Part shown: in pieces, positions 2,291 through 20,000 of the stretch
Position numbering within the stretch: the stretch's first letter is position 1
Layout of the letters: every line of letters begins with the position of its first letter
IMG/VR virus record: IMGVR_UViG_3300034072_002082
Strand: one strand, 5' to 3'
DNA from: an uncultured virus (IMG/VR IMGVR_UViG_3300034072_002082)
Lineage: Duplodnaviria > Heunggongvirae > Uroviricota > Caudoviricetes
DNA length: 20,000 bases
Notes under the pieces: generated by a model
Told to the model about the DNA's origin: nothing
Databases searched by the model: none
What the model saw: only the letters and a program-made list of their open reading frames with translations
Translations under genes and position numbers: made by a program

Positions 2291-2854
2291 TCATTGGGCC
2301 TTCAGTGAGTAGGCGCATTTGCGCAGCAGATCGACGGCCTTGCTCGACCCTTCAAGGTTGACGGTCACTAGCAACCGCAGATTGGGATCGGTGAAGATGG
2401 CAATGTTGTCCGCCCGGGCAAACCTGCGCAGGAAGGTCTCGGTGCTGGGCATCTTTGAATAGAAGGTCCGGTGATCCTCACCGTTCCGATTAGCCCCGAC
2501 GCCTGCATCAGCGTAGATCCAGTCCGGATCGAGGTTCTGGGCTGTCGTCAGTGCTACCTGAATATCAATACTTTTGCCCACGGCAAAGTTGGCGCCGTCT
2601 TGAATGCTGAAACCGAGGAGCACCCCGTCCTTGAAAGGGTCAAATGCTACGAGAAGGGTGTAGAGGTTTGTCTCGGCGTAGAGCTCGCAGCGGTTGCGCT
2701 TGCCAGGGACAACAGCCTTGAAGACCGTCCAGCCGTTGATGTCGCCGTAGAGTTCGGAGCCGCCATCTTCCTGTGCATTTGCTGGAGCGAGAGGAGTAAG
2801 CGCCAGCATGCCGGCCAACAACAGGGCAAGACTTCTCAAGGCACATCCTTTCAC
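2291..2854 (-). CDS. Secreted hypothetical protein, paralog of 531..1082
   Basis: Signal peptide (ANA-Q) and shared motifs with 531..1082. Confidence 0.85.
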   Translation of the reverse strand: MKGCALRSLALLLAGMLALTPLAPANAQEDGGSELYGDINGWTVFKAVVPGKRNRCELYAETNLYTLLVAFDPFKDGVLLGFSIQDGANFAVGKSIDIQVALTTAQNLDPDWIYADAGVGANRNGEDHRTFYSKMPSTETFLRRFARADNIAIFTDPNLRLLVTVNLEGSSKAVDLLRKCAYSLKAQ

Positions 2855-2920
2855 GTTCCAGCATGTCTGGTAGTGAAGCCCTGCAACCTCTGCAATCAGG
2901 GTTAGATCAACCTTGGGAGA

Positions 2921-3763
2921 TTACGCTATCGGCACACCAACCCAGCGAGCCTTAGCGCCCCGGGAGTTCTCCACCACCGGTCCCTTGCCTTCGATCCACA
3001 GATCAAGCTCTTCGACCGTGTAGTACCCTGAGGCGTTCCACTTCTGGTCTCGCGGGTTCTGCAGGAACATCACTGGGTAGGAGGTTAGGCTATCCTTCAT
3101 CGGCCGCACAGCTGTCAGTGCGAAATAGCCAAGGTGACCTTCATGGCGCGATCCGGCGGCGGCATGGATCCGCTCGATGATTCCAGTCTCGGTCGCAAGA
3201 CGCGCAACCTCCGCACGCTCTCGCACGAGTTCGTCGTAGCGCTGACGCCAGTCCGTGGGTACCTGCGAGGCACGAGCGATGGCAAGGCCGCCACGGGAAT
3301 AGGGATTTGGGGTGCCGCCGAGCCAGACGGCGATATCGCCCTGCTCAAAGCCTTCCTGGAGGTTGTTTGCGATTTCTGCAGCCTGGTCCCCATAGAGGCC
3401 GATGGCAAAGTGCTGATCGTCAAACGCGCCGGTGACGACGCATTCTTCGTATCGGCGGGAGAGCAGTAGGCTCGGAAATTCCGCAACCTTATCCGAGGTC
3501 GTAAGAAATTGGCCGTTGTCCCTGACGATACGGTGATTTTTGAAGCGCGAAGCGACAAAGCCGCCGGCGTGAATGCGATCGGCAACAGGGGCAGGGGTCT
3601 TGTTGGTCTCGAAAGGCCCTGTGGCCTCGATCCCCAGCCGCCACTGCAAGGGGATTATCCCGTTTTCTTGCTCCGCGGTGTAATCCCCAGCAAGAACGAC
3701 GCCGTAGATGGCGTCGTTCTCGTCACGTAGCAATTTGCTTTCGATCATGTTCGCGCGGCGCAT
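2921..3763 (-). CDS. Hypothetical protein (start 3763 or 3748)
   Basis: 280-aa ORF co-oriented with its neighbours, GGGGG RBS-like element, globular composition, C-terminal YPVMFLQNP.DQ...GYYTVEELDLW motif. Function not recognised. Confidence 0.7.
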   Translation of the reverse strand: MRRANMIESKLLRDENDAIYGVVLAGDYTAEQENGIIPLQWRLGIEATGPFETNKTPAPVADRIHAGGFVASRFKNHRIVRDNGQFLTTSDKVAEFPSLLLSRRYEECVVTGAFDDQHFAIGLYGDQAAEIANNLQEGFEQGDIAVWLGGTPNPYSRGGLAIARASQVPTDWRQRYDELVRERAEVARLATETGIIERIHAAAGSRHEGHLGYFALTAVRPMKDSLTSYPVMFLQNPRDQKWNASGYYTVEELDLWIEGKGPVVENSRGAKARWVGVPIA

Positions 3764-3779
3764 CCCCCCGATGCTCCGC

Positions 3780-4262
3780 TCAGAACCAGCCGAGGCCGTA
3801 GGCCAGGGCGCCGATGGTGCCCCACAGCATGACGGAAAGGCCGATGGTAAGAGCCAGCTGGTTGCGGGGCTTCATCGGCATCTGGTGCGGAGCAAGGCCC
3901 ATCATGTCGGCCGAGATCGTGCTCCAGCTGAACTCGATCGTGCGCTTGCCGTTCTCGAGCGAGGTTACGGCGAACTGGACCGGCGACTGGGTGATCTCGA
4001 TACGGTCGGTGGGCGAGATGCCAAGAGATGCGAGCGCGCGATCGTGTCCTGCGAGCATGTCCGATTCGGTAACACCGAACTTCCAATCGCCATCGTCCCA
4101 GCGGAAGGCGAAGTCTTCGGACTTGCGAGCGATCAGGTACAAGATCTTGCGAAGCGCGGCATGGCCAGCGCTGCGGGGAGGACGAACGCCCGAGAGAGGA
4201 GCCGCAAAACGGACTTCTGTGGAACCCTTGAGACCAAGGATGTCATGTGTGATTGCGTTCAT
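3780..4262 (-). CDS. Hypothetical protein with C-terminal transmembrane anchor
   Basis: GGGAG RBS before ATG; C-terminal hydrophobic helix LALTIGLSVMLWGTIGALAYGLGWF. Confidence 0.75.
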   Translation of the reverse strand: MNAITHDILGLKGSTEVRFAAPLSGVRPPRSAGHAALRKILYLIARKSEDFAFRWDDGDWKFGVTESDMLAGHDRALASLGISPTDRIEITQSPVQFAVTSLENGKRTIEFSWSTISADMMGLAPHQMPMKPRNQLALTIGLSVMLWGTIGALAYGLGWF

Positions 4263-4338
4263 GATTTACTCCCCATGGATATGCGTACCCCCAACAGCGG
4301 GTAACGTCCATAGAGAAGATACAAACGGTACGGACGTA

Positions 4339-4959
4339 TCAATCCGGCTCGGACGTAATGTCCTTCTGGTGCCGGATAATGCCTGCATGCGTATAGATCA
4401 TCCGCTTGGCACCCTGGCTATCAAATCTCGATGCCACCACGGTGTAGTGGTGGTGGCGGTGGGAAGCGACGCTGGTCACAAAGCCTCGGGCAAGTGCAGC
4501 GGCGCAGTATCCCGCCAGATGATAGCTGTCAGGATGGCGGACCTGAAGGAACAAGGCGCCTTCTACTGCGATCTTGTCCTCTTTGCCGCCGTCCTGCTCG
4601 ATTTCAACGGCGCCATCGAAGAGCCGGGCGCTGATCGCAGGGAAGGGTTTGAGCTGCTCGGTTTGCGTGAAAGCAAATCGCTGCTTCATGCCGGACAGTA
4701 CAACAGCCGGCGCCGGCCTGACGTCAACGGCGGTTCCGATTGGGCATTCGTAGAATGCAAGACGGCCCCGCGCCTCCTGGCGTTGGGCCATCATTGCAAG
4801 GTAGGCAGTCACATTGGGTGGGACCGGCAATGCCGAACCCACCCAACGCCTCACTGTGCTGCCATCAACGCCAAGGGCTGCAGCCAGGCGGGTTTGCCAG
4901 CCGTAGCCGAACAGATCTTCCCCGACGCGTTTGAAGTCGTCGATGGTTTCGATCTGCAT
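4339..4959 (-). CDS. Cro/XRE-like HTH protein with unknown C-terminal domain (206 aa), coupled to TROVE
   Basis: Start revised to ATG 4959, overlapping the TROVE stop (TGATG), with GGAG RBS. N-terminus GEDLFGYGWQTRLAAALGVDGSTVRRWV is an HTH pattern. Confidence 0.75.
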   Translation of the reverse strand: MQIETIDDFKRVGEDLFGYGWQTRLAAALGVDGSTVRRWVGSALPVPPNVTAYLAMMAQRQEARGRLAFYECPIGTAVDVRPAPAVVLSGMKQRFAFTQTEQLKPFPAISARLFDGAVEIEQDGGKEDKIAVEGALFLQVRHPDSYHLAGYCAAALARGFVTSVASHRHHHYTVVASRFDSQGAKRMIYTHAGIIRHQKDITSEPD

Positions 4960-6266
4960 CACTGGCACTCCTGCTCGTAGGTGTGGATCCATCGCAGCAC
5001 TTGCTCTGAAAAGCCAGAGATGCGCGTCCACGGGCCATAGCCAATGGCGTTCTGCGCCGATGCCACGTTGATCATGTACGCGCGGCTGGCACTTGCCGGG
5101 CCGACAGGCGCGCTCGCTTGCTCGTCGGTGATGACGATCAGGCGGTCATGCTCGATGGCATTGATGTGACGGACGGCTGCACCAAGCTCGGTACCAAGGT
5201 GTGACTGCGACTTCTTGATCGCCGACACGCCTGCCATACCCCGTCTGGGCGGAACCTCCACGACCTTGCTCGAGAAGGTGAAGACCCGGACATTGCCGTG
5301 GATCACGCTGGCAAGGGTCGCAGCAGCGTCCATGCGCGTGAGATCCGACTTGCTAGACAGCGGCGCGTCCATGCTGCCCGATACGTCGACGAGAACAATG
5401 GTCTCGCCGCGCAGGATCGGCATGTCGGCAACCGCAGCACACAGCGCCTCGTCGAGCTGGGGCTCGAAGCGCGGCGCGGCCCGGGCGGCGGCGACATAGC
5501 GGAAGGGCAAGACGTCGCGAGCTCCCTTGCGCGCGAGGATGGCCTCGCGCACAAGGGCCACATCGACACCGGCATCGCTCATGTTGCGCAGGTTCCGCAA
5601 CAGAGCGAGATAACCAAGCTTGCCCTCGCGCAGCAGGCGCTCGAAGGTCTCGCGCTTGTCGGCGCCACCGGAGAGGCCAACCTCCCAGGTGTCAGGCGCT
5701 GCCAAGGTCCCGTTGATGAGACGGCCGTAGGTGTCAGCCATCTCGTCATTGGCCGCCTTGGGGTGAGCCAGACGCAGGACGTCCTTGATCGTGACCGTTG
5801 CGGCCCGATTGTACTTGGCAAGCTGATAGGCGTCGAAACGGCCCATGGCACGTGCCAGCCCGCGGCGCATTGCTGCCGGGATCGGGCGTCGGCCGTTCTT
5901 CCAGTAGAGGGCCAGCAGCTCACCGGGCTCATCTGCGCGGCGGCACACCTCGTAGATCAGCGAAGCTGTGTCGAATGCCGATCCCAGCCGACGCTCGATG
6001 ACCGAGATCACCAGCCACAGGGCGACGTGGCGCATATTGGCCTGGGTGCGAAGCTCGATGGCAAGGTCGGCCACCTGCTTGACCGGCACCGTGGCCGCAA
6101 GCGACTGGATGCGCTCGGCGATCGACACGCCGTCCTCGTAGAACTCGCTCTCCCAGAGCATCGCAGACGAGGTCGCGCGGCGCAGGGCGGCAATGTCCTT
6201 CAGAGGAACAGCAGGCGCGCCCTCATGCGTGCGCAGGGCATTCTTGGGCCGGGTATTGGTGCGCAT
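4959..6266 (-). CDS. rsr: TROVE domain protein (Ro60/Rsr ortholog) with vWA domain, 435 aa
   Basis: ATG 6266 with AGGAGG RBS. TROVE motifs WESEFYEDG, RADEPGELLALYW, FDAYQLAKY, KDVLRLAHPK, TWE..LS, YLALLRNLRNM, LPFRY; vWA MIDAS DVSGSM and ITDEQ. Confidence 0.93.
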   Translation of the reverse strand: MRTNTRPKNALRTHEGAPAVPLKDIAALRRATSSAMLWESEFYEDGVSIAERIQSLAATVPVKQVADLAIELRTQANMRHVALWLVISVIERRLGSAFDTASLIYEVCRRADEPGELLALYWKNGRRPIPAAMRRGLARAMGRFDAYQLAKYNRAATVTIKDVLRLAHPKAANDEMADTYGRLINGTLAAPDTWEVGLSGGADKRETFERLLREGKLGYLALLRNLRNMSDAGVDVALVREAILARKGARDVLPFRYVAAARAAPRFEPQLDEALCAAVADMPILRGETIVLVDVSGSMDAPLSSKSDLTRMDAAATLASVIHGNVRVFTFSSKVVEVPPRRGMAGVSAIKKSQSHLGTELGAAVRHINAIEHDRLIVITDEQASAPVGPASASRAYMINVASAQNAIGYGPWTRISGFSEQVLRWIHTYEQECQ

Positions 6267-6305
6267 GGCATCCTCCTTGAGCAGCGGGAGACGCACAGAC
6301 GACCG

Positions 6306-6451
6306 ATCAAGGCGAGGCGGGTATTATCGGCCTCGGACCAAAGGTGCACTAACCACTATGCTACCGGCCTCAAGAGACTGGGCTGGATTCGAACCAGCGT
6401 AACCTGCTGACATGCGAAGTAACCGAGACCTGCGCCTCGCCTCGCCTTGAT
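6306..6451 (-). ncRNA. yrlA: YrlA-like Y RNA with a circularly permuted tRNA-like domain
   Basis: 14-bp terminal stem ATCAAGGCGAGGCG/CGCCTCGCCTTGAT and inner stem GGTCTCGG/CCGAGGCC. Inside, 5'->3': T-arm GCTGG-TTCGAAT-CCAGC (6398-6382), loop-closed acceptor-like stem (6381-6364), UA, then D-arm GCAT-AGTGGTTA-GTGC (6361-6346). It lies directly upstream of the Ro60 gene. Confidence 0.88.
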
Positions 6452-6457
6452 AAGGAC

Positions 6458-6522
6458 GTCCGGGAAATGTCGAGCACCGCATTTTTTCCAAAAACGAAGT
6501 AACGGTGCTCTGCGCCTCGGAC
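6458..6522 (-). ncRNA. Second, minimal Y-RNA-like RNA without a tRNA domain
   Basis: GTCCG/CGGAC and GAGCACCG/CGGTGCTC stems. It shares CGAGGCGCAG, GTTACTTCG and CGAyAwTwCCCG with the YrlA-like RNA, while the paired stem sequences differ compensatorily. Confidence 0.75.
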
Positions 6523-6529
6523 AGACATA

Positions 6530-6558
6530 TAAATAGTGCGCCTCGCACTAACCGTCAA
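6530..6558 (-). promoter_or_regulatory. sigma70-type promoter for the Y RNA-Ro operon
   Basis: TTGACG (6558-6553), 17-bp spacer, TATTTA (6535-6530). The predicted start falls at about 6523, matching the 5' end of the first RNA. Confidence 0.7.
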
Positions 6559-6580
6559 GCGATTAGTGCGAGGCGCACTA
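6534..6580. promoter_or_regulatory. Pair of palindromic operators TAGTGCG-N3-CGCACTA
   Basis: 6534-6550 TAGTGCGCCTCGCACTA and 6564-6580 TAGTGCGAGGCGCACTA are perfect reverse complements of each other, flank the -35 box and have centres 30 bp apart. Confidence 0.75.
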
Positions 6581-6592
6581 AATTATTCCAGA

Positions 6593-6624: not shown

Positions 6625-7083
6625 TCAGGCCTTGGCGGCGGCCGCCTTGCGAGCGGGCTTGCCTTCGGCCTTCTCTGCCGGCTTGCGACCGAGGCCAATC
6701 TTCTTGGCCAGATCGCGGCGCGTCTCGGCATAGGCCGGAGCGACCATCGGATAGTCGGCGGGCAGGTTCCAGCGCGCGCGGTACTGCTCGGGCGTCATGT
6801 TGTAGTGCGTCATGAGGTGACGCTTGAGCATCTTGAGCTTCTTGCCGTCTTCGAGGCAGACGATGTAATCGTTCTTGATCGAGGAGCGGATCGACACTGC
6901 AGGCTCAGGTGCCGCCTCTTCAACGACAGCCGGCTCACCAACGCCAGCGAGCGAAGTGTAGACGTTGGAGATGAGGGTCGGAATGTCACCGACGGCGACG
7001 CTGTTGTTGCCGACGTGAGCGGCGACGATATCAGCAGTCAGAGTGATAAGAGTTTCGTGCATGTTGTCATTGATCTCGGACAT
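6625..7083 (-). CDS. mucR: MucR/Ros family transcriptional regulator (Cys/Asp/His/His zinc finger)
   Basis: LTADIVAAHV.NN N-terminus; IVCLEDGKKLKMLKRHLMTHYNMTPEQYRARWNLPADYPMVAPAYAETRRDLAKKIGLG. Confidence 0.95.
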   Translation of the reverse strand: MSEINDNMHETLITLTADIVAAHVGNNSVAVGDIPTLISNVYTSLAGVGEPAVVEEAAPEPAVSIRSSIKNDYIVCLEDGKKLKMLKRHLMTHYNMTPEQYRARWNLPADYPMVAPAYAETRRDLAKKIGLGRKPAEKAEGKPARKAAAAKA

Positions 7084-9478: not shown

Positions 9479-10111
9479 TCAGGCGGCCAGCGGCTCGCCC
9501 GGCTCAGGACGCTTGTCGATCACGCGATCGACGAGGCCGAAGGCAAGAGCCTCGTCGGCTTCGAAGAAGCTGTCGCGGTCCATGCGGCGTTCGATCTCGT
9601 CGAGCGGCTGGCCCGTGTACTGGGCGTAGTAGCCGTTCATGCGCGAACGGATCCGCAAGATTTCCTTGGCCTGGATCTCGATATCCGAGGCCATGCCGCG
9701 TGCGCCGCCCGACGGCTGGTGGATCATGATCCGGGCATTGGGCAGCGCCATGCGCATGCCGGGCTCGCCGGCGGCCAGCAGGAAGCTGCCCATCGAGGCT
9801 GCCTGGCCGATGCAGATGGTCGCGACCTTCGGGCGAATGAAGTTCATGGTGTCGTGGATCGCCATGCCAGCCGTCACCACGCCGCCGGGCGAATTGATGT
9901 ACATCGCGATGTCCTTGGTCGGATTTTCCGATTCCAGGAAGAGCAACTGGGCGCAGATCACGGCAGCCATGTTGTCCTCAACGCCACCGTTCACGAAGAT
10001 GATGCGCTCGCGCAGCAGGCGCGAAAAGATGTCAAAGCTGCGTTCACCGCGGCTCGACTGCTCGATGACCATCGGGATCAGGGCATTGGTAGCGTCGTGA
10101 TTATCGTACAA
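9479..10111 (-). CDS. clpP: ATP-dependent Clp protease proteolytic subunit
   Basis: [35 protein letters not shown], catalytic Ser in QAASMG, His in MIHQP, Asp in DRD. TTG start with AAGGA RBS. Confidence 0.96.
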
Positions 10112-11311: not shown

Positions 11312-11878
11312 TCAACGTCCGTCGAGTGGAAGCTCAAGCATCCCCAATCGGACCTTGGTCGCCCCTACCGAACATCCGATGTGATCTGCAATCTGAAATA
11401 TGGACATGCCAGATGCAGAAAGTCGGCGCATCTTGTCTCCGCACATGAGAATGTCGGCGGCGATGCGATTAGCCTGCTGCTCATGCTTGATCTCGATATA
11501 TGGGTTGAGCAACGCGACCATCGGCTGGCGATACTTGTTGCTGTCATAGACACCCGACATCTCGCCATTCTTGAGGATGAGGTCGCGATGCAGGAGGTAG
11601 TGAGCGATCTCGTGGGCGATGGTGAAGCGCTGCCTGTTCTTGTCGGCTGTCGGGTTGACCCCGATCGACCACTTGCCGCCAAGACACGTGAGGCAGCCGG
11701 CAATCTCGGTGCTGAAGGATGGGCGCCGGATTTCGATACCGAGCTGGTCTGCGAGAGCTTCGACGTCCGTGTAATCGGCATCCTTTGCCTGGCGAACGAA
11801 AGCGAGGTCTGACCGCGGCGGGTCTTCGTTGGCGGGCATGTGCGTGGGTGCCTTGGTCTTGAACAGAAAGCCGAGCAT
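11312..11878 (-). CDS. ImmA/IrrE (DUF955) family zinc metallopeptidase
   Basis: RQRFTIAHEIAHYLLH (HExxH) and EQQANRIAADILM, plus C-terminal HTH-like SIFQIADHIGCSVGATKVRL. Start ATG 11878 with AAAGGA RBS. Confidence 0.88.
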   Translation of the reverse strand: MLGFLFKTKAPTHMPANEDPPRSDLAFVRQAKDADYTDVEALADQLGIEIRRPSFSTEIAGCLTCLGGKWSIGVNPTADKNRQRFTIAHEIAHYLLHRDLILKNGEMSGVYDSNKYRQPMVALLNPYIEIKHEQQANRIAADILMCGDKMRRLSASGMSIFQIADHIGCSVGATKVRLGMLELPLDGR

Positions 11879-11934
11879 GATTTTCCTTTTCTGAGGGGCG
11901 AGTTGCATTCACAGGCCTTAATCATCGCGAAGCG

Positions 11935-16790: not shown

Positions 16791-17032
16791 GACCCATCAA
16801 TCCTTGGAGGTGTGCGCGGCAAAGAAAGGTATGTGCAAGAAGATCTGATATCGATATTTTCATACAGCAAATTCAAACACATGAAGGCTGATAGCTGGGA
16901 ATATTCCGGGAAACCCTTGGAACTCTCACTGGCAAGTTGGCATTATGTCTAGGAACGTCCGTTCAAAAACTGGTGGCGACGTCTATGTCCGATGGCTATA
17001 TTGTCTCCGAACGAGAACAGGGTTGTCAATCA

Positions 17033-17497
17033 ATGGAACAGAGTGAAATTGCCCCCAATATGGTGGGCATGTCCGTCGATCTTGCGGCTGCGTGGGCGGC
17101 CAATCCAAGCAATCGGTGCACGTCTGACGAGGTCCTGAACTTCGTGCGCCAGGCGCATCAGACGCTTCTGGATCTCTCCTCGCCAAAGCCGGAGGCTGAT
17201 GCGGCGCCAGAAGACGAACGACCAAAGGTGATAAAGGGTGCTGTCACCGAGCGCCAATCCTTGTCGTCAAGCGCTCACATCATTTCGATGCTCGATGGCA
17301 AGCCCTACAAGACGCTTCGCCGTCATCTGGCAGGGCATGGGCTCACGCCGGAGGAATACCGGCAGCGCTTTGGCCTGAAGCCCGACTACCCGATGGTTGC
17401 TCGCGACTATTCCGAGCGGCGCAGCGCGATGGCCAAAGCATCAGGGCTGGGGGTCAAGCCGATCCACAAGCAGCGCAAGCGGCGGACGAAAGACTAA
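17033..17497 (+). CDS. mucR: MucR/Ros family regulator, variant lacking the zinc-binding Cys
   Basis: IISMLDGKPYKTLRRHLAGHGLTPEEYRQRFGLKPDYPMVARDYSERRSAMAKASGLG. Start estimated at ATG 17033. Confidence 0.9.
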   Translation: MEQSEIAPNMVGMSVDLAAAWAANPSNRCTSDEVLNFVRQAHQTLLDLSSPKPEADAAPEDERPKVIKGAVTERQSLSSSAHIISMLDGKPYKTLRRHLAGHGLTPEEYRQRFGLKPDYPMVARDYSERRSAMAKASGLGVKPIHKQRKRRTKD

Positions 17498-18165: not shown

Positions 18166-18927
18166 TCAGGCGGGCTTGTTCAGCACGACGATGCGGCTTG
18201 CGACCCCGGTGCCGGACTTCTTGAAGGCCCCGGCAGCCACCGGCTCGACGTAGGCGCAAAGGCTGTCGAGCCAGTCGCGCCACTCAGCGCATTCACGCTC
18301 TTGGCCGAAGAAGCTGTGTTCGCCGACGATCGCCGCTAGCCGGCCGCCTGGCTTCAGACAGGCAAAGGCATGGCGCACATGCCGGATGTCGGCATTCTTG
18401 GCGAAGGGCGGGTTCATCGCGATCTTGGAGACCTGCAGGGTCTGCGGATCCTGTTCGAGGAAATCGCCCTGGCGGATTACCCCCGCGAGGCCTTGTGCCT
18501 GCAAGGCAGTGATGTTGTCCTGGTCGATCTCGACTGCCGTGATGGATGCCGGCTTGCAGCCGTCCAGCGCTGTGATGATGCGGCCAAGCCCGGCGCTGGG
18601 CTCCAGACAGGTGTCATCGCTGTTGATGTCGAGGAACGAGCAAAGATGGTCTGCGAGCTCGCTCGGGGTTTCGAAGAGCTGCAAGCTCTGCTGGCGGCTG
18701 ACGACATTGCCGTTGCCCAAGGCGTCCTGAATCTTGGGGGAGGGGTCAAACGGGAACTTGTGACCGCCCGCTTTGCGGTCCCACTTGCCGCCAAGTGCTT
18801 TGAGGACCTTGTCCGTGGACATGTAGAGATTGCGGTCGAGTTGACCTGCGGGCAGGGTGAGCAGCATGCCGTTGATCGTCGAGCGTGAGAGCACGTCGGC
18901 GACGTCTGGCGAGATCGTGATAGCCAT
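18166..18927 (-). CDS. SAM-dependent amino-methyltransferase (probable DNA N6-adenine MTase)
   Basis: Motif X QLFETP, motif I LEPSAGLG, AVEID, GDFL, motif IV MNPPF, LKPGGRLAAI, FKKSGTGV. Confidence 0.85.
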   Translation of the reverse strand: MAITISPDVADVLSRSTINGMLLTLPAGQLDRNLYMSTDKVLKALGGKWDRKAGGHKFPFDPSPKIQDALGNGNVVSRQQSLQLFETPSELADHLCSFLDINSDDTCLEPSAGLGRIITALDGCKPASITAVEIDQDNITALQAQGLAGVIRQGDFLEQDPQTLQVSKIAMNPPFAKNADIRHVRHAFACLKPGGRLAAIVGEHSFFGQERECAEWRDWLDSLCAYVEPVAAGAFKKSGTGVASRIVVLNKPA

Positions 18928-19490: not shown

Positions 19491-19640
19491 GCATTTTCAT
19501 GCCACAGCGCGATTTCGAGACTACGCTCATCCTCAGTCGTGAGACTGTGCAGCTCAGCCTTGCGGCTGGCTGCCGGATCACGTTAGCGTCTCAAGGGCCC
19601 TGAACGGCCCTCGCCAGGACATTCCTGGCCGCATTGTGGT
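19491..19640 (-). ncRNA. Probable TnpB omegaRNA (reRNA) scaffold plus guide; boundaries approximate
   Basis: Nested stems right after the tnpB stop: GAGAC/GTCTC, ATCC/GGAT, GCAGC-CAGCC-GCAA-GGCTG-A-GCTGC and CAGTC-TCAC-GACTG, ending at GAAATC (19516-19511). Confidence 0.55.
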
Positions 19641-20000
19641 CACGATGCAGGACTGCGCCGCACGAGCAACTGTGCTTACGCACATTGCCGTTCTTTGGCA
19701 CTTTTGTGCCGCAGAAGCTGCAGTCCTGGCTCGTGTTGCGCGGATCGACCATGCGCAGCTCGCCACCGGCTCTTTCAGCCTTGTAGCGAAGCATGGCGAT
19801 CAGACGTCCCGGCGATGCATCGAGCATCGACCGGTTCAGGCCGGCCTTCTGCCGCACGTTCTTGCCCGGTTTGGCCAAGGTGCCCTTGGCCGACCGGGTC
19901 ATGTTCTTGAGCTTGAGATCCTCGACAACGATAACCTCGAAGCGGTTTGCGATGTTCGCGCTTACCTGATGAAGGTGCGTGGTGCGCGTATTCTCGATCC
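19591..20000 (-). CDS. tnpB: RNA-guided endonuclease TnpB (IS200/IS605/IS607 family), 3' part
   Basis: The frame is open to the window edge: HLHQVSANIANRFEVIVVEDLKLKNMTRSAKGT...GLNRSMLD...VDPRNTSQDCSFCG...CSCG...RDHNAARNV, giving RuvC II Glu, zinc finger and RuvC III Asp. Confidence 0.92.
   Translation of the reverse strand, partial: IENTRTTHLHQVSANIANRFEVIVVEDLKLKNMTRSAKGTLAKPGKNVRQKAGLNRSMLDASPGRLIAMLRYKAERAGGELRMVDPRNTSQDCSFCGTKVPKNGNVRKHSCSCGAVLHRDHNAARNVLARAVQGP

Follow-up and report, generated by a model that had tools for sequence, protein, structure and literature searches.

The stretch of DNA analysed here, 20,000 nucleotides (nt) of an uncultured virus of the class Caudoviricetes (IMG/VR record IMGVR_UViG_3300034072_002082; hereafter, the window), carries on its minus strand a compact module for a Ro60-like protein and its Y RNAs that ends in the gene of a helix-turn-helix (HTH) protein. 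The module spans positions 4339–6580 (coordinates are those of the whole window) and runs from an operator-flanked promoter (6579–6530) through two Y-like RNAs, here termed RNA1 and RNA2, and a TROVE-vWA gene to the HTH gene; an earlier note on this DNA had listed these same parts, and all of them are present on the one strand within this span. We consider it probable that the module is a self-contained, autoregulated Ro60/Y-RNA operon with the HTH protein as its repressor, a reading in which repression and dimerisation, the processing of the RNAs, their binding by Ro and the role of the module are predictions. The anatomy of the module, the covariation of its RNAs, the conservation of the HTH partner, the association of operator with HTH gene and the match of operator class to recognition helix were observed directly. 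To our knowledge, the switching-on of a bacterial or phage Ro60/Y-RNA system is known only for the RtcR-controlled operon of Salmonella; the cassette and ~110 related loci point to a second, simpler form of control, exerted by a dedicated small repressor with an operator code. The features of the module, in minus-strand order, are the following:

6579–6565, minus strand: operator O1, palindrome AGTGCG-CCT-CGCACT (AGTGCGCCTCGCACT), just upstream of the -35 box (from the sequence and the repeat finder, repeats D3/I1)
6558–6553, minus strand: -35 box TTGACG (from the sequence)
6549–6535, minus strand: operator O2, palindrome AGTGCG-AGG-CGCACT (AGTGCGAGGCGCACT), occupying the spacer between the -35 and -10 boxes (from the sequence and the repeat finder)
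6535–6530, minus strand: candidate -10 box TATTTA, weak and inferred, 17-nt spacer from the -35 box (from the sequence)
~6523–6457, minus strand: RNA1, a short Y-like RNA, its ends inferred from the pairing (alignment A5 and RNAalifold)
~6451–6306, minus strand: RNA2, a YrlA-type Y RNA with a permuted tRNA-like domain (Rfam, inverted repeat I2, alignment A3, model R1)
6266–4959, minus strand: TROVE-vWA (Ro60-like) gene, 435 amino acids (aa) plus stop (Pfam, PHROGs, structure-sequence profile)
4959–4339, minus strand: HTH gene, 206 aa, an open reading frame (ORF) whose ATG (4959–4957) shares one base with the TROVE TGA

The HTH partner and its operators

The conservation of the HTH gene beside TROVE homologs, without which the earlier note held its reading to be refuted, was borne out by a survey of 207 related loci, comprising 80 from bacterial genomes, 80 from viral contigs and 47 from metagenomes. 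A partner was counted when a profile of the HTH family, iterated on the ORFs of the fetched loci, found it directly downstream of the TROVE gene and on the same strand. By this measure the gene follows TROVE in 57 of the 80 genome loci and 31 of the 80 viral-contig loci, and in two further viral loci and in L088 it lies a little further downstream. The pair was also present in 23 of the 24 metagenome loci in which the TROVE gene is included, a proportion drawn from a sample biased towards the pairing, as the metagenome loci were fetched by way of the HTH protein itself. An apparent TROVE-HTH fusion in L001 and L002 was rejected, the long ORF being an alternative frame in both.

In most loci the HTH protein is ~65–90 aa long. 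The window's version is divided into an XRE/Cro/Aca-like HTH followed by a long helix (residues ~1–71) and an orphan alpha/beta domain (residues ~72–206). Sequence comparisons place the first part only loosely: the Pfam families P22_Cro and YdaS match weakly (expect value (E) ~0.01), phrog_3626, a family of unknown function, matches residues 7–62 (E 3.8e-10), no match was returned by NCBIfam or PADLOC, and none was significant among the sequences of solved structures, those of the solved anti-CRISPR-associated (Aca) families included. The AlphaFold (AF2) model built from 20 homologs has a mean predicted local distance difference test score (pLDDT) of 90.8 and a predicted template modelling score of 0.88, and in VIA structural comparisons its residues 2–62 superimpose best on Aca10 (Z 7.0, root-mean-square deviation 2.3, 56 residues aligned) and Aca1 (Z 6.5); C.EcoT38IS and the 434 repressor also align, with Z in the 5–7 range, as do DdrO and CapH.

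The two palindromes of the promoter recur in relatives. One of the O1 class stands at the equivalent place in L081 and L084, and the position of O2, between the -35 and -10 boxes, is kept in L001–L003, L081 and L084–L088. A strict form of the motif, GTGC[AG]N3[TC]GCAC, has 40 matches in the 202 kb upstream of TROVE genes versus 7 in the other 1.56 Mb, and these sites nearly always lie 5–6 nt after a TTGAC, that is, between -35 and -10. A generalised operator was then defined as a perfect 6-3-6 palindrome with the core GC[AG]-N3-[CT]GC no more than 1.2 kb upstream, and was evaluated in 170 of 185 loci, those with less than 500 nt of upstream sequence being dropped. Such a palindrome was present in 53 of the 102 loci with the HTH gene versus 4 of the 68 without it, and one of those four, L138, has a sequence that ends at the TROVE stop codon.

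The palindromes fall into two main classes, one with GTTGCA/TGCAAC half-sites (43 sites) and one with AGTGCA/TGCACT (19 sites, to which the window's two AGTGCG palindromes are added); in most loci of the latter, TTGAC precedes the palindrome by 5–6 nt. These classes partition perfectly with the recognition helix of the adjoining HTH protein. The AGTGCA class goes with a helix ending ...STVRRW (RRW) in 15 of 15 cases, and the GTTGCA class goes with ...SVSRW (SRW) in 22 and ...QIWRY (WRY) in 14 and with RRW in none. For a repressor and its cognate operator, a change of specificity in the protein is expected to be matched by a change in the DNA, and the palindromes thus behave as operators of the HTH protein, as the earlier note had supposed, in both their co-occurrence with the gene and their match to its recognition helix. 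An operator that fills the core promoter would imply repression and, since the HTH gene is the last in the transcript, repression would amount to autorepression. By analogy with acr-aca operons, the HTH protein is most likely the operon's autorepressor.

Several observations weigh against this interpretation. A simple sigma-70 consensus scan made no call of the Ro60 promoter, which it missed because the -10 box is weak, and a scan reads the palindrome pair as one terminator-like hairpin 45 nt past the upstream mucR gene. No perfect palindrome was found at 49 of the 102 loci with the HTH gene. The loci are moreover related to one another, so that both the Fisher test on the palindrome counts (p 6e-11) and the partition of helix with operator overstate the number of independent events. 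Finally, the lytic phages CcrColossus and Xanthomonas phage Olaya carry a TROVE gene and a long unannotated upstream gap but no downstream HTH gene, which indicates that the HTH protein is not needed for Ro function.

The operator code, RRW with AGTGCA and SRW or WRY with GTTGCA, makes the regulation of a large and mostly unstudied Ro60 clade directly testable, and the HTH gene offers a marker for finding more Ro60/Y-RNA modules. Elsewhere in the window, the intergenic region 1083–1528 contains the operator core a third time, as an exact match (GTGCATCGCGCAC) at 1429–1441 without an obvious preceding TTGAC; the HTH protein may have a second target there, or the match may be due to chance.

The Ro60-like protein, its RNAs and their known relatives

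Both RNA structures are backed by strong covariation. RNA1 consists of a lower stem, an internal loop, an upper stem and a UUACUUCG loop, without a tRNA-like domain. Across 27 sequences (the window and 26 relatives) it forms 16 pairs, 15 of which show compensatory changes, and 91.9% of its alignment cells are paired, versus 75.4% in shuffles and at most 48.9% when the partners are slid. RNA2 is closed by a perfect terminal stem of 14 bp (6451–6438 with 6319–6306), and RNAalifold resolves six helices, namely the terminal stem, two inner stems, a T-arm, a hairpin and a D-arm, with an internal loop. In alignment A3, of the window with 30 related upstream regions, 24 of the 31 pairs are compensatory and 94.7% of cells are paired, versus 72.2% in shuffles (none of 500 reaching the observed value) and at most 50.7% with partners slid.

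With its T-loop GGUUCGAAUCC and D-arm GUAGC...GC, RNA2 has the stem expected of YrlA RNAs, paired at its ends and interrupted by an internal loop, together with both tRNA-like arms. The Rfam family YrlA (RF02553) matches it at 6314–6426 only weakly, at 24.4 bits versus a gathering threshold of 69 (E 0.0062 in a search of 501 nt); at the gathering threshold Rfam gives no match, and ARAGORN found no tRNA. A covariance model built from A3 (R1) scores the window copy, at 6302–6455, with 107 bits and, in our reading of the match table, finds copies upstream of the TROVE gene and on the same strand in 77 of the 80 genome loci, often in tandem arrays; the loci missed are L061 and two without upstream sequence, L019 and L048. 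In the 80 viral-contig loci R1 has 87 matches at E<=1e-12.

Chen et al. 2014 (PMC4201824) found Y RNAs beside Ro60 in more than 250 bacteria and 22 phages. Only 40 nt separate the end of RNA2 from the start codon of TROVE on the same strand, a distance within the 4 kb of the Ro60 gene expected of YrlA-type RNAs. The strict GNCGAAN0-1G motif that Chen et al. describe for the Ro-binding region was not seen by eye in either window RNA; in the alignments, UUCCC follows CGA[CU] or CGCC on the 3' strands. On their 5' sides RNA1 and RNA2 have AGGCGCAG and UUACUUCG in common (repeat D1). Among the related loci, Y-RNA-like tandem arrays of five to seven units stand upstream of TROVE in L071 (295–1876), L034 (2947–4911), L153 and L159 (3976–4959), and in L169 a full-length Y-RNA-like unit lies downstream of the TROVE gene instead.

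The TROVE gene starts at an ATG at 6266, preceded by the Shine-Dalgarno sequence AAGGAGG (6278–6272), and its 435-aa product has an identical counterpart among recorded proteins. The protein matches Pfam TROVE (PF05731) with 60.5 bits versus a cut-off of 23 and, over its full length, phrog_850, annotated as an RNA-binding protein (E 2.9e-47). The C-terminal vWA domain is borderline in Pfam (VWA_2, 26.5 bits versus a cut-off of 27; vWA_Ro60 weak), and its MIDAS motif DxSxS (D304, S306 and S308 in the numbering of the 445-aa ORF) is invariant in 22 homologs. A profile of these homologs matches phiRo60 of the Thermus phage phiLo (9L5Y/9KOP) with E 1.9e-43 over query residues 9–432, covering the vWA MIDAS motif; Deinococcus Rsr (2NVO) follows with E 6.8e-4 and 9NEN, an entry named RNA-binding protein RO60, with E ~1e-3. 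Assignment as an ortholog of Rsr was rejected on this distance from 2NVO and on the NCBIfam model NF041674, which gave 17.7 bits versus an equivalog cut-off of 900.

Of 8000 candidates scored, 7951 matched with E<=0.001, which makes the family a very large one; among the matches listed (n=120) the proteins are 416–448 aa long. It was confirmed on IMG/VR viral sequence in 126 of 169 pattern matches, in 95 records of cultured phages, which include Brevundimonas, Caulobacter (CcrColossus), Xanthomonas and Rhizobium phages, and by 132 matches in species-representative genomes, mostly of Alphaproteobacteria; TROVE proteins have also been noted in jumbo phages (PMC7824862). By these sequence matches, the window's protein belongs to a large Ro60 clade that is common in phages.

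Its closest solved relative, phiRo60 with its RNAs Yrl1 and Yrl2, is a TROVE-vWA ring encoded with two upstream Y-like RNAs and no RtcAB, and is reported to bind both of these RNAs as well as host PNPase (PMC12135203). The window differs in the clear tRNA-like domain of its RNA2 and in an HTH gene that closes the operon, with operators in the promoter; the text of the phiLo paper contains none of the terms HTH, helix-turn-helix, repressor, operon, downstream or tRNA-like. The rsr-yrlBA-rtcBA operon of Salmonella (Chen et al. 2014, PMC4201824; Hughes et al. 2020, PMC7790460) likewise joins on one strand a Ro60-like protein with one long tRNA-like (YrlA) and one short (YrlB) Y RNA. In Salmonella, rsr precedes the RNA genes, the operon includes RtcB and RtcA, and it is controlled by the sigma-54 activator RtcR, which senses tRNA fragments, whereas the window has its RNAs upstream of the Ro60-like gene, no RtcAB, a sigma-70-like promoter and, in last place, a small putative repressor. 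RNA1 and RNA2 thus mirror the long and short pairs YrlA/YrlB of Salmonella and Yrl1/Yrl2 of phiLo (PMC4201824, PMC12135203). The Rsr/Y RNA/PNPase system (RYPER) of Deinococcus radiodurans is alike in having a Y RNA upstream of the Ro gene without RtcAB (PMC4201824); its protein is a distant relation, its Y RNA family differs, and the searched text reports no dedicated downstream HTH.

These comparisons bear on the earlier note's suggestion that the architecture is undescribed. No paper was found that describes an HTH partner or operator of Ro60 modules, in a search of the literature that left some reviews of Ro60 and RNA repair outside its reach; two upstream Y-like RNAs with a Ro60 and no RtcAB, on the other hand, were already known from phiLo. 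Judged from its sequence, the module is a member of a known Ro60/Y-RNA kind, in its phage-type clade, and its apparent novelty lies in the dedicated, probable autorepressor of XRE/Aca-like type, which is widespread in the clade and whose operator code can be read, and in the rare orphan domain fused to the HTH in the window.

Proposed regulation and its alternatives

In the mechanism we propose, a sigma-70-type promoter would drive a single transcript comprising the short Y RNA, the YrlA-type Y RNA, the Ro60-like gene and the translationally coupled HTH gene. The HTH protein, presumably as a dimer, would bind the 6-3-6 palindromes, which overlap the core of the promoter, and would thereby repress its own operon, in a logic that would parallel that of Aca proteins and of the controller proteins of restriction-modification systems. 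Expression would burst upon entry into a repressor-free cell, or upon loss of the repressor, and would then be clamped. The Ro60 ring is expected to sit on the stems of the Y RNAs, and the tRNA-like domain is expected to recruit a partner enzyme.

The nearest model is the acr-aca operon. With Aca1, Aca2 and Aca10, a small HTH gene stands last in a short operon of a mobile element and its product binds inverted repeats in its own promoter, as three papers describe (PMC8633003, PMC9410881, PMC9410906). In the window the cargo is a Ro60/Y-RNA module, not an anti-CRISPR, and repression is a prediction. The cassette would tie Ro60 biology to the logic by which anti-defence operons of mobile elements burst on entry.

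In the window's small subclade the repressor would have gained its rare C-terminal domain, perhaps for cooperative binding to the two operators 30 bp apart or for the sensing of a signal. The domain is, by structure prediction and comparison, a rare orphan fold. It was found among the related loci only in the window and in eight metagenome loci (L081–L088), and a profile run over 1.84 billion representatives retrieved 13 clusters, all of proteins of 206–238 aa in which the domain, at ~69–210, is always behind an HTH. Folded alone it is predicted with a pLDDT of 91.4, and its invariant residues are F, K, P, RHPD, H, L, HxY, TH and R. Foldseek gave no match in the PDB at E<=0.001, the wide VIA search reached a best Z of 3.6, and the ESM Atlas gave no usable match. 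In four of the long-form loci, namely the window, L081, L084 and L086, two operators lie 30–52 bp apart (30 bp in the window), a pairing to be expected if the domain serves oligomerisation and hence cooperative binding; a role as sensor is equally possible.

A signal-responsive switch is worth entertaining as the lesser possibility. The C-terminal domain would sense a ligand, damaged RNA or the Ro ribonucleoprotein (RNP), and the operon would be stress-induced and not only self-limited, which for the window's subclade is compatible with autorepression. The confident fold, the invariant R-H-P-D, H, Y, T-H and R residues, the exclusive fusion behind an HTH and the doubled operators are all consistent with such a role. 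No relative in fold or sequence hints at a ligand, however, most members of the HTH family (~70 aa) have no sensor domain, and the conserved residues could equally serve oligomerisation.

A wider proposal, speculative and in our estimation rather unlikely, is that the cassette is an RNA-based island for counter-defence or RNA protection built like an acr-aca operon, from which Ro60 and tRNA-mimic Y RNAs burst on entry before the operon shuts itself off. If this were true, Ro60 and the Y RNAs would sequester or redirect host RNases such as PNPase, or tRNA-targeting nucleases; the small HTH family and its GCA-N3-TGC operator would become a guilt-by-association marker of these islands across Alphaproteobacteria and their phages; and the orphan C-terminal domain would represent a novel module for sensing or oligomerisation.

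The earlier note had suggested that the Ro RNP may act together with the HTH protein as a switch in RNA damage or anti-defence, in which the tRNA-mimic Y RNAs would, for instance, lure anticodon nucleases as decoys; we regard this as improbable. The translational coupling of the TROVE and HTH genes would suit such a partnership, as would the abundance of the family on viral contigs and in cultured phages, the occasional proximity of RtcB and Hen1 (see below) and the reported attenuation of host PNPase by phiRo60 (PMC12135203). A possible further parallel is Bas63 gp130, a phage Ro60-like protein beside tRNA-like genes that is reported to counter the Ppl defence; the passages of the preprint that concern it mention no HTH partner (10.1101/2024.10.10.617714). 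Yet the covariation of operator and recognition helix is enough to account for the persistence of the HTH gene next to TROVE, and lytic phages keep TROVE without it. A plain autorepressor fits the evidence better than either a partnership with the Ro RNP or a decoy.

That the inverted repeat at 6580–6534 is merely the intrinsic terminator of the upstream mucR, with the HTH protein regulating something else, is very hard to credit: although the scan reports a stem of 20 pairs with ATTTATATGT after it and mucR ends at 6625, homologous loci whose upstream genes are unrelated retain one such palindrome in the spacer from TTGAC to the -10 box, with no conserved run of T behind it, and the class of palindrome follows the HTH recognition helix.

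Genomic surroundings

The module appears to be self-contained, as had been claimed, in the sense that its neighbours do not travel with it. When the 14 flanking proteins of the window were searched for in the 207 related loci, none recurred save ClpP, 80% identical in L083; with flanks that are not conserved, the conserved unit is the promoter, the RNAs, TROVE and the HTH gene. The window's clpP is full-length (9479–10111, minus strand), ~3 kb upstream of the module, and in L083 ClpP is encoded at 3–380, ~4 kb upstream of TROVE.

A Pfam scan of the 54 window ORFs detected no RtcB, RtcA or sigma-54 activator domain, in agreement with the earlier note's statement that rtcB, rtcA and rtcR are lacking from the window; its view of this absence as distinctive did not hold, the condition being ordinary in the clade. 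Of 182 related loci, no more than 22 have RtcB within ~5 kb, 17 of these 22 having the HTH gene as well, and 6 have Hen1. The TROVE family thus touches RNA repair, yet the absence of RtcAB is the norm. Examples of RtcB or Hen1 adjoining a TROVE gene of the clade are L005 (2774–4102), L058 (6385–7596) and L014 (6300–7730).

A location of the module on a mobile element is plausible from its sequence surroundings, although no integrase, capsid or conjugation gene was found among the window's genes. A megablast of the window returned only two short, weak plasmid matches (Erythrobacter and Porphyrobacter) and no phage match. Beyond the HTH gene, three ORFs on the same strand (2291–4262, minus; 160, 280 and 187 aa) have no match in Pfam, NCBIfam, PHROGs or PADLOC and no relatives in the fetched loci. 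Two MucR/Ros regulators are encoded at 6625–7083 (minus) and 16937–17497 (plus), with Pfam E values of 7e-50 and 7e-32, the first ending 45 nt upstream of the Ro60 promoter. An M78/IrrE-type peptidase gene lies at 11312–11908 (minus; PADLOC CapP, E 4e-21); proteases of this type usually pair with an XRE repressor, which is cleaved after DNA damage. A DNA methyltransferase domain is encoded at 18166–18927 (minus; phrog_9133, PADLOC mad2), similar domains occurring inside very large phage and plasmid proteins, and a TnpB/Cas12f-like fragment at 19591–19998 (minus) runs off the end of the window.

Public sequencing runs add some detail on the cassette in its source population. None of the runs listed as containing this DNA is an RNA run. 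One run, guessed to be RNA, yielded a single 187-nt contig inside the TROVE gene, which is uninformative on expression. In the best-matching run (X1), a 2140-nt contig spans exactly 4298–6437 and breaks at both ends into variant contigs of higher depth, a pattern that fits a variable cassette but is weak evidence for one. The breaks in the X1 graph fall at 4264–4299 and 6408–6592, one variant of the promoter and RNA1 region differs at 16 positions and has a depth of 33x versus 9x, and the variant contigs suggest related copies in the same sample.

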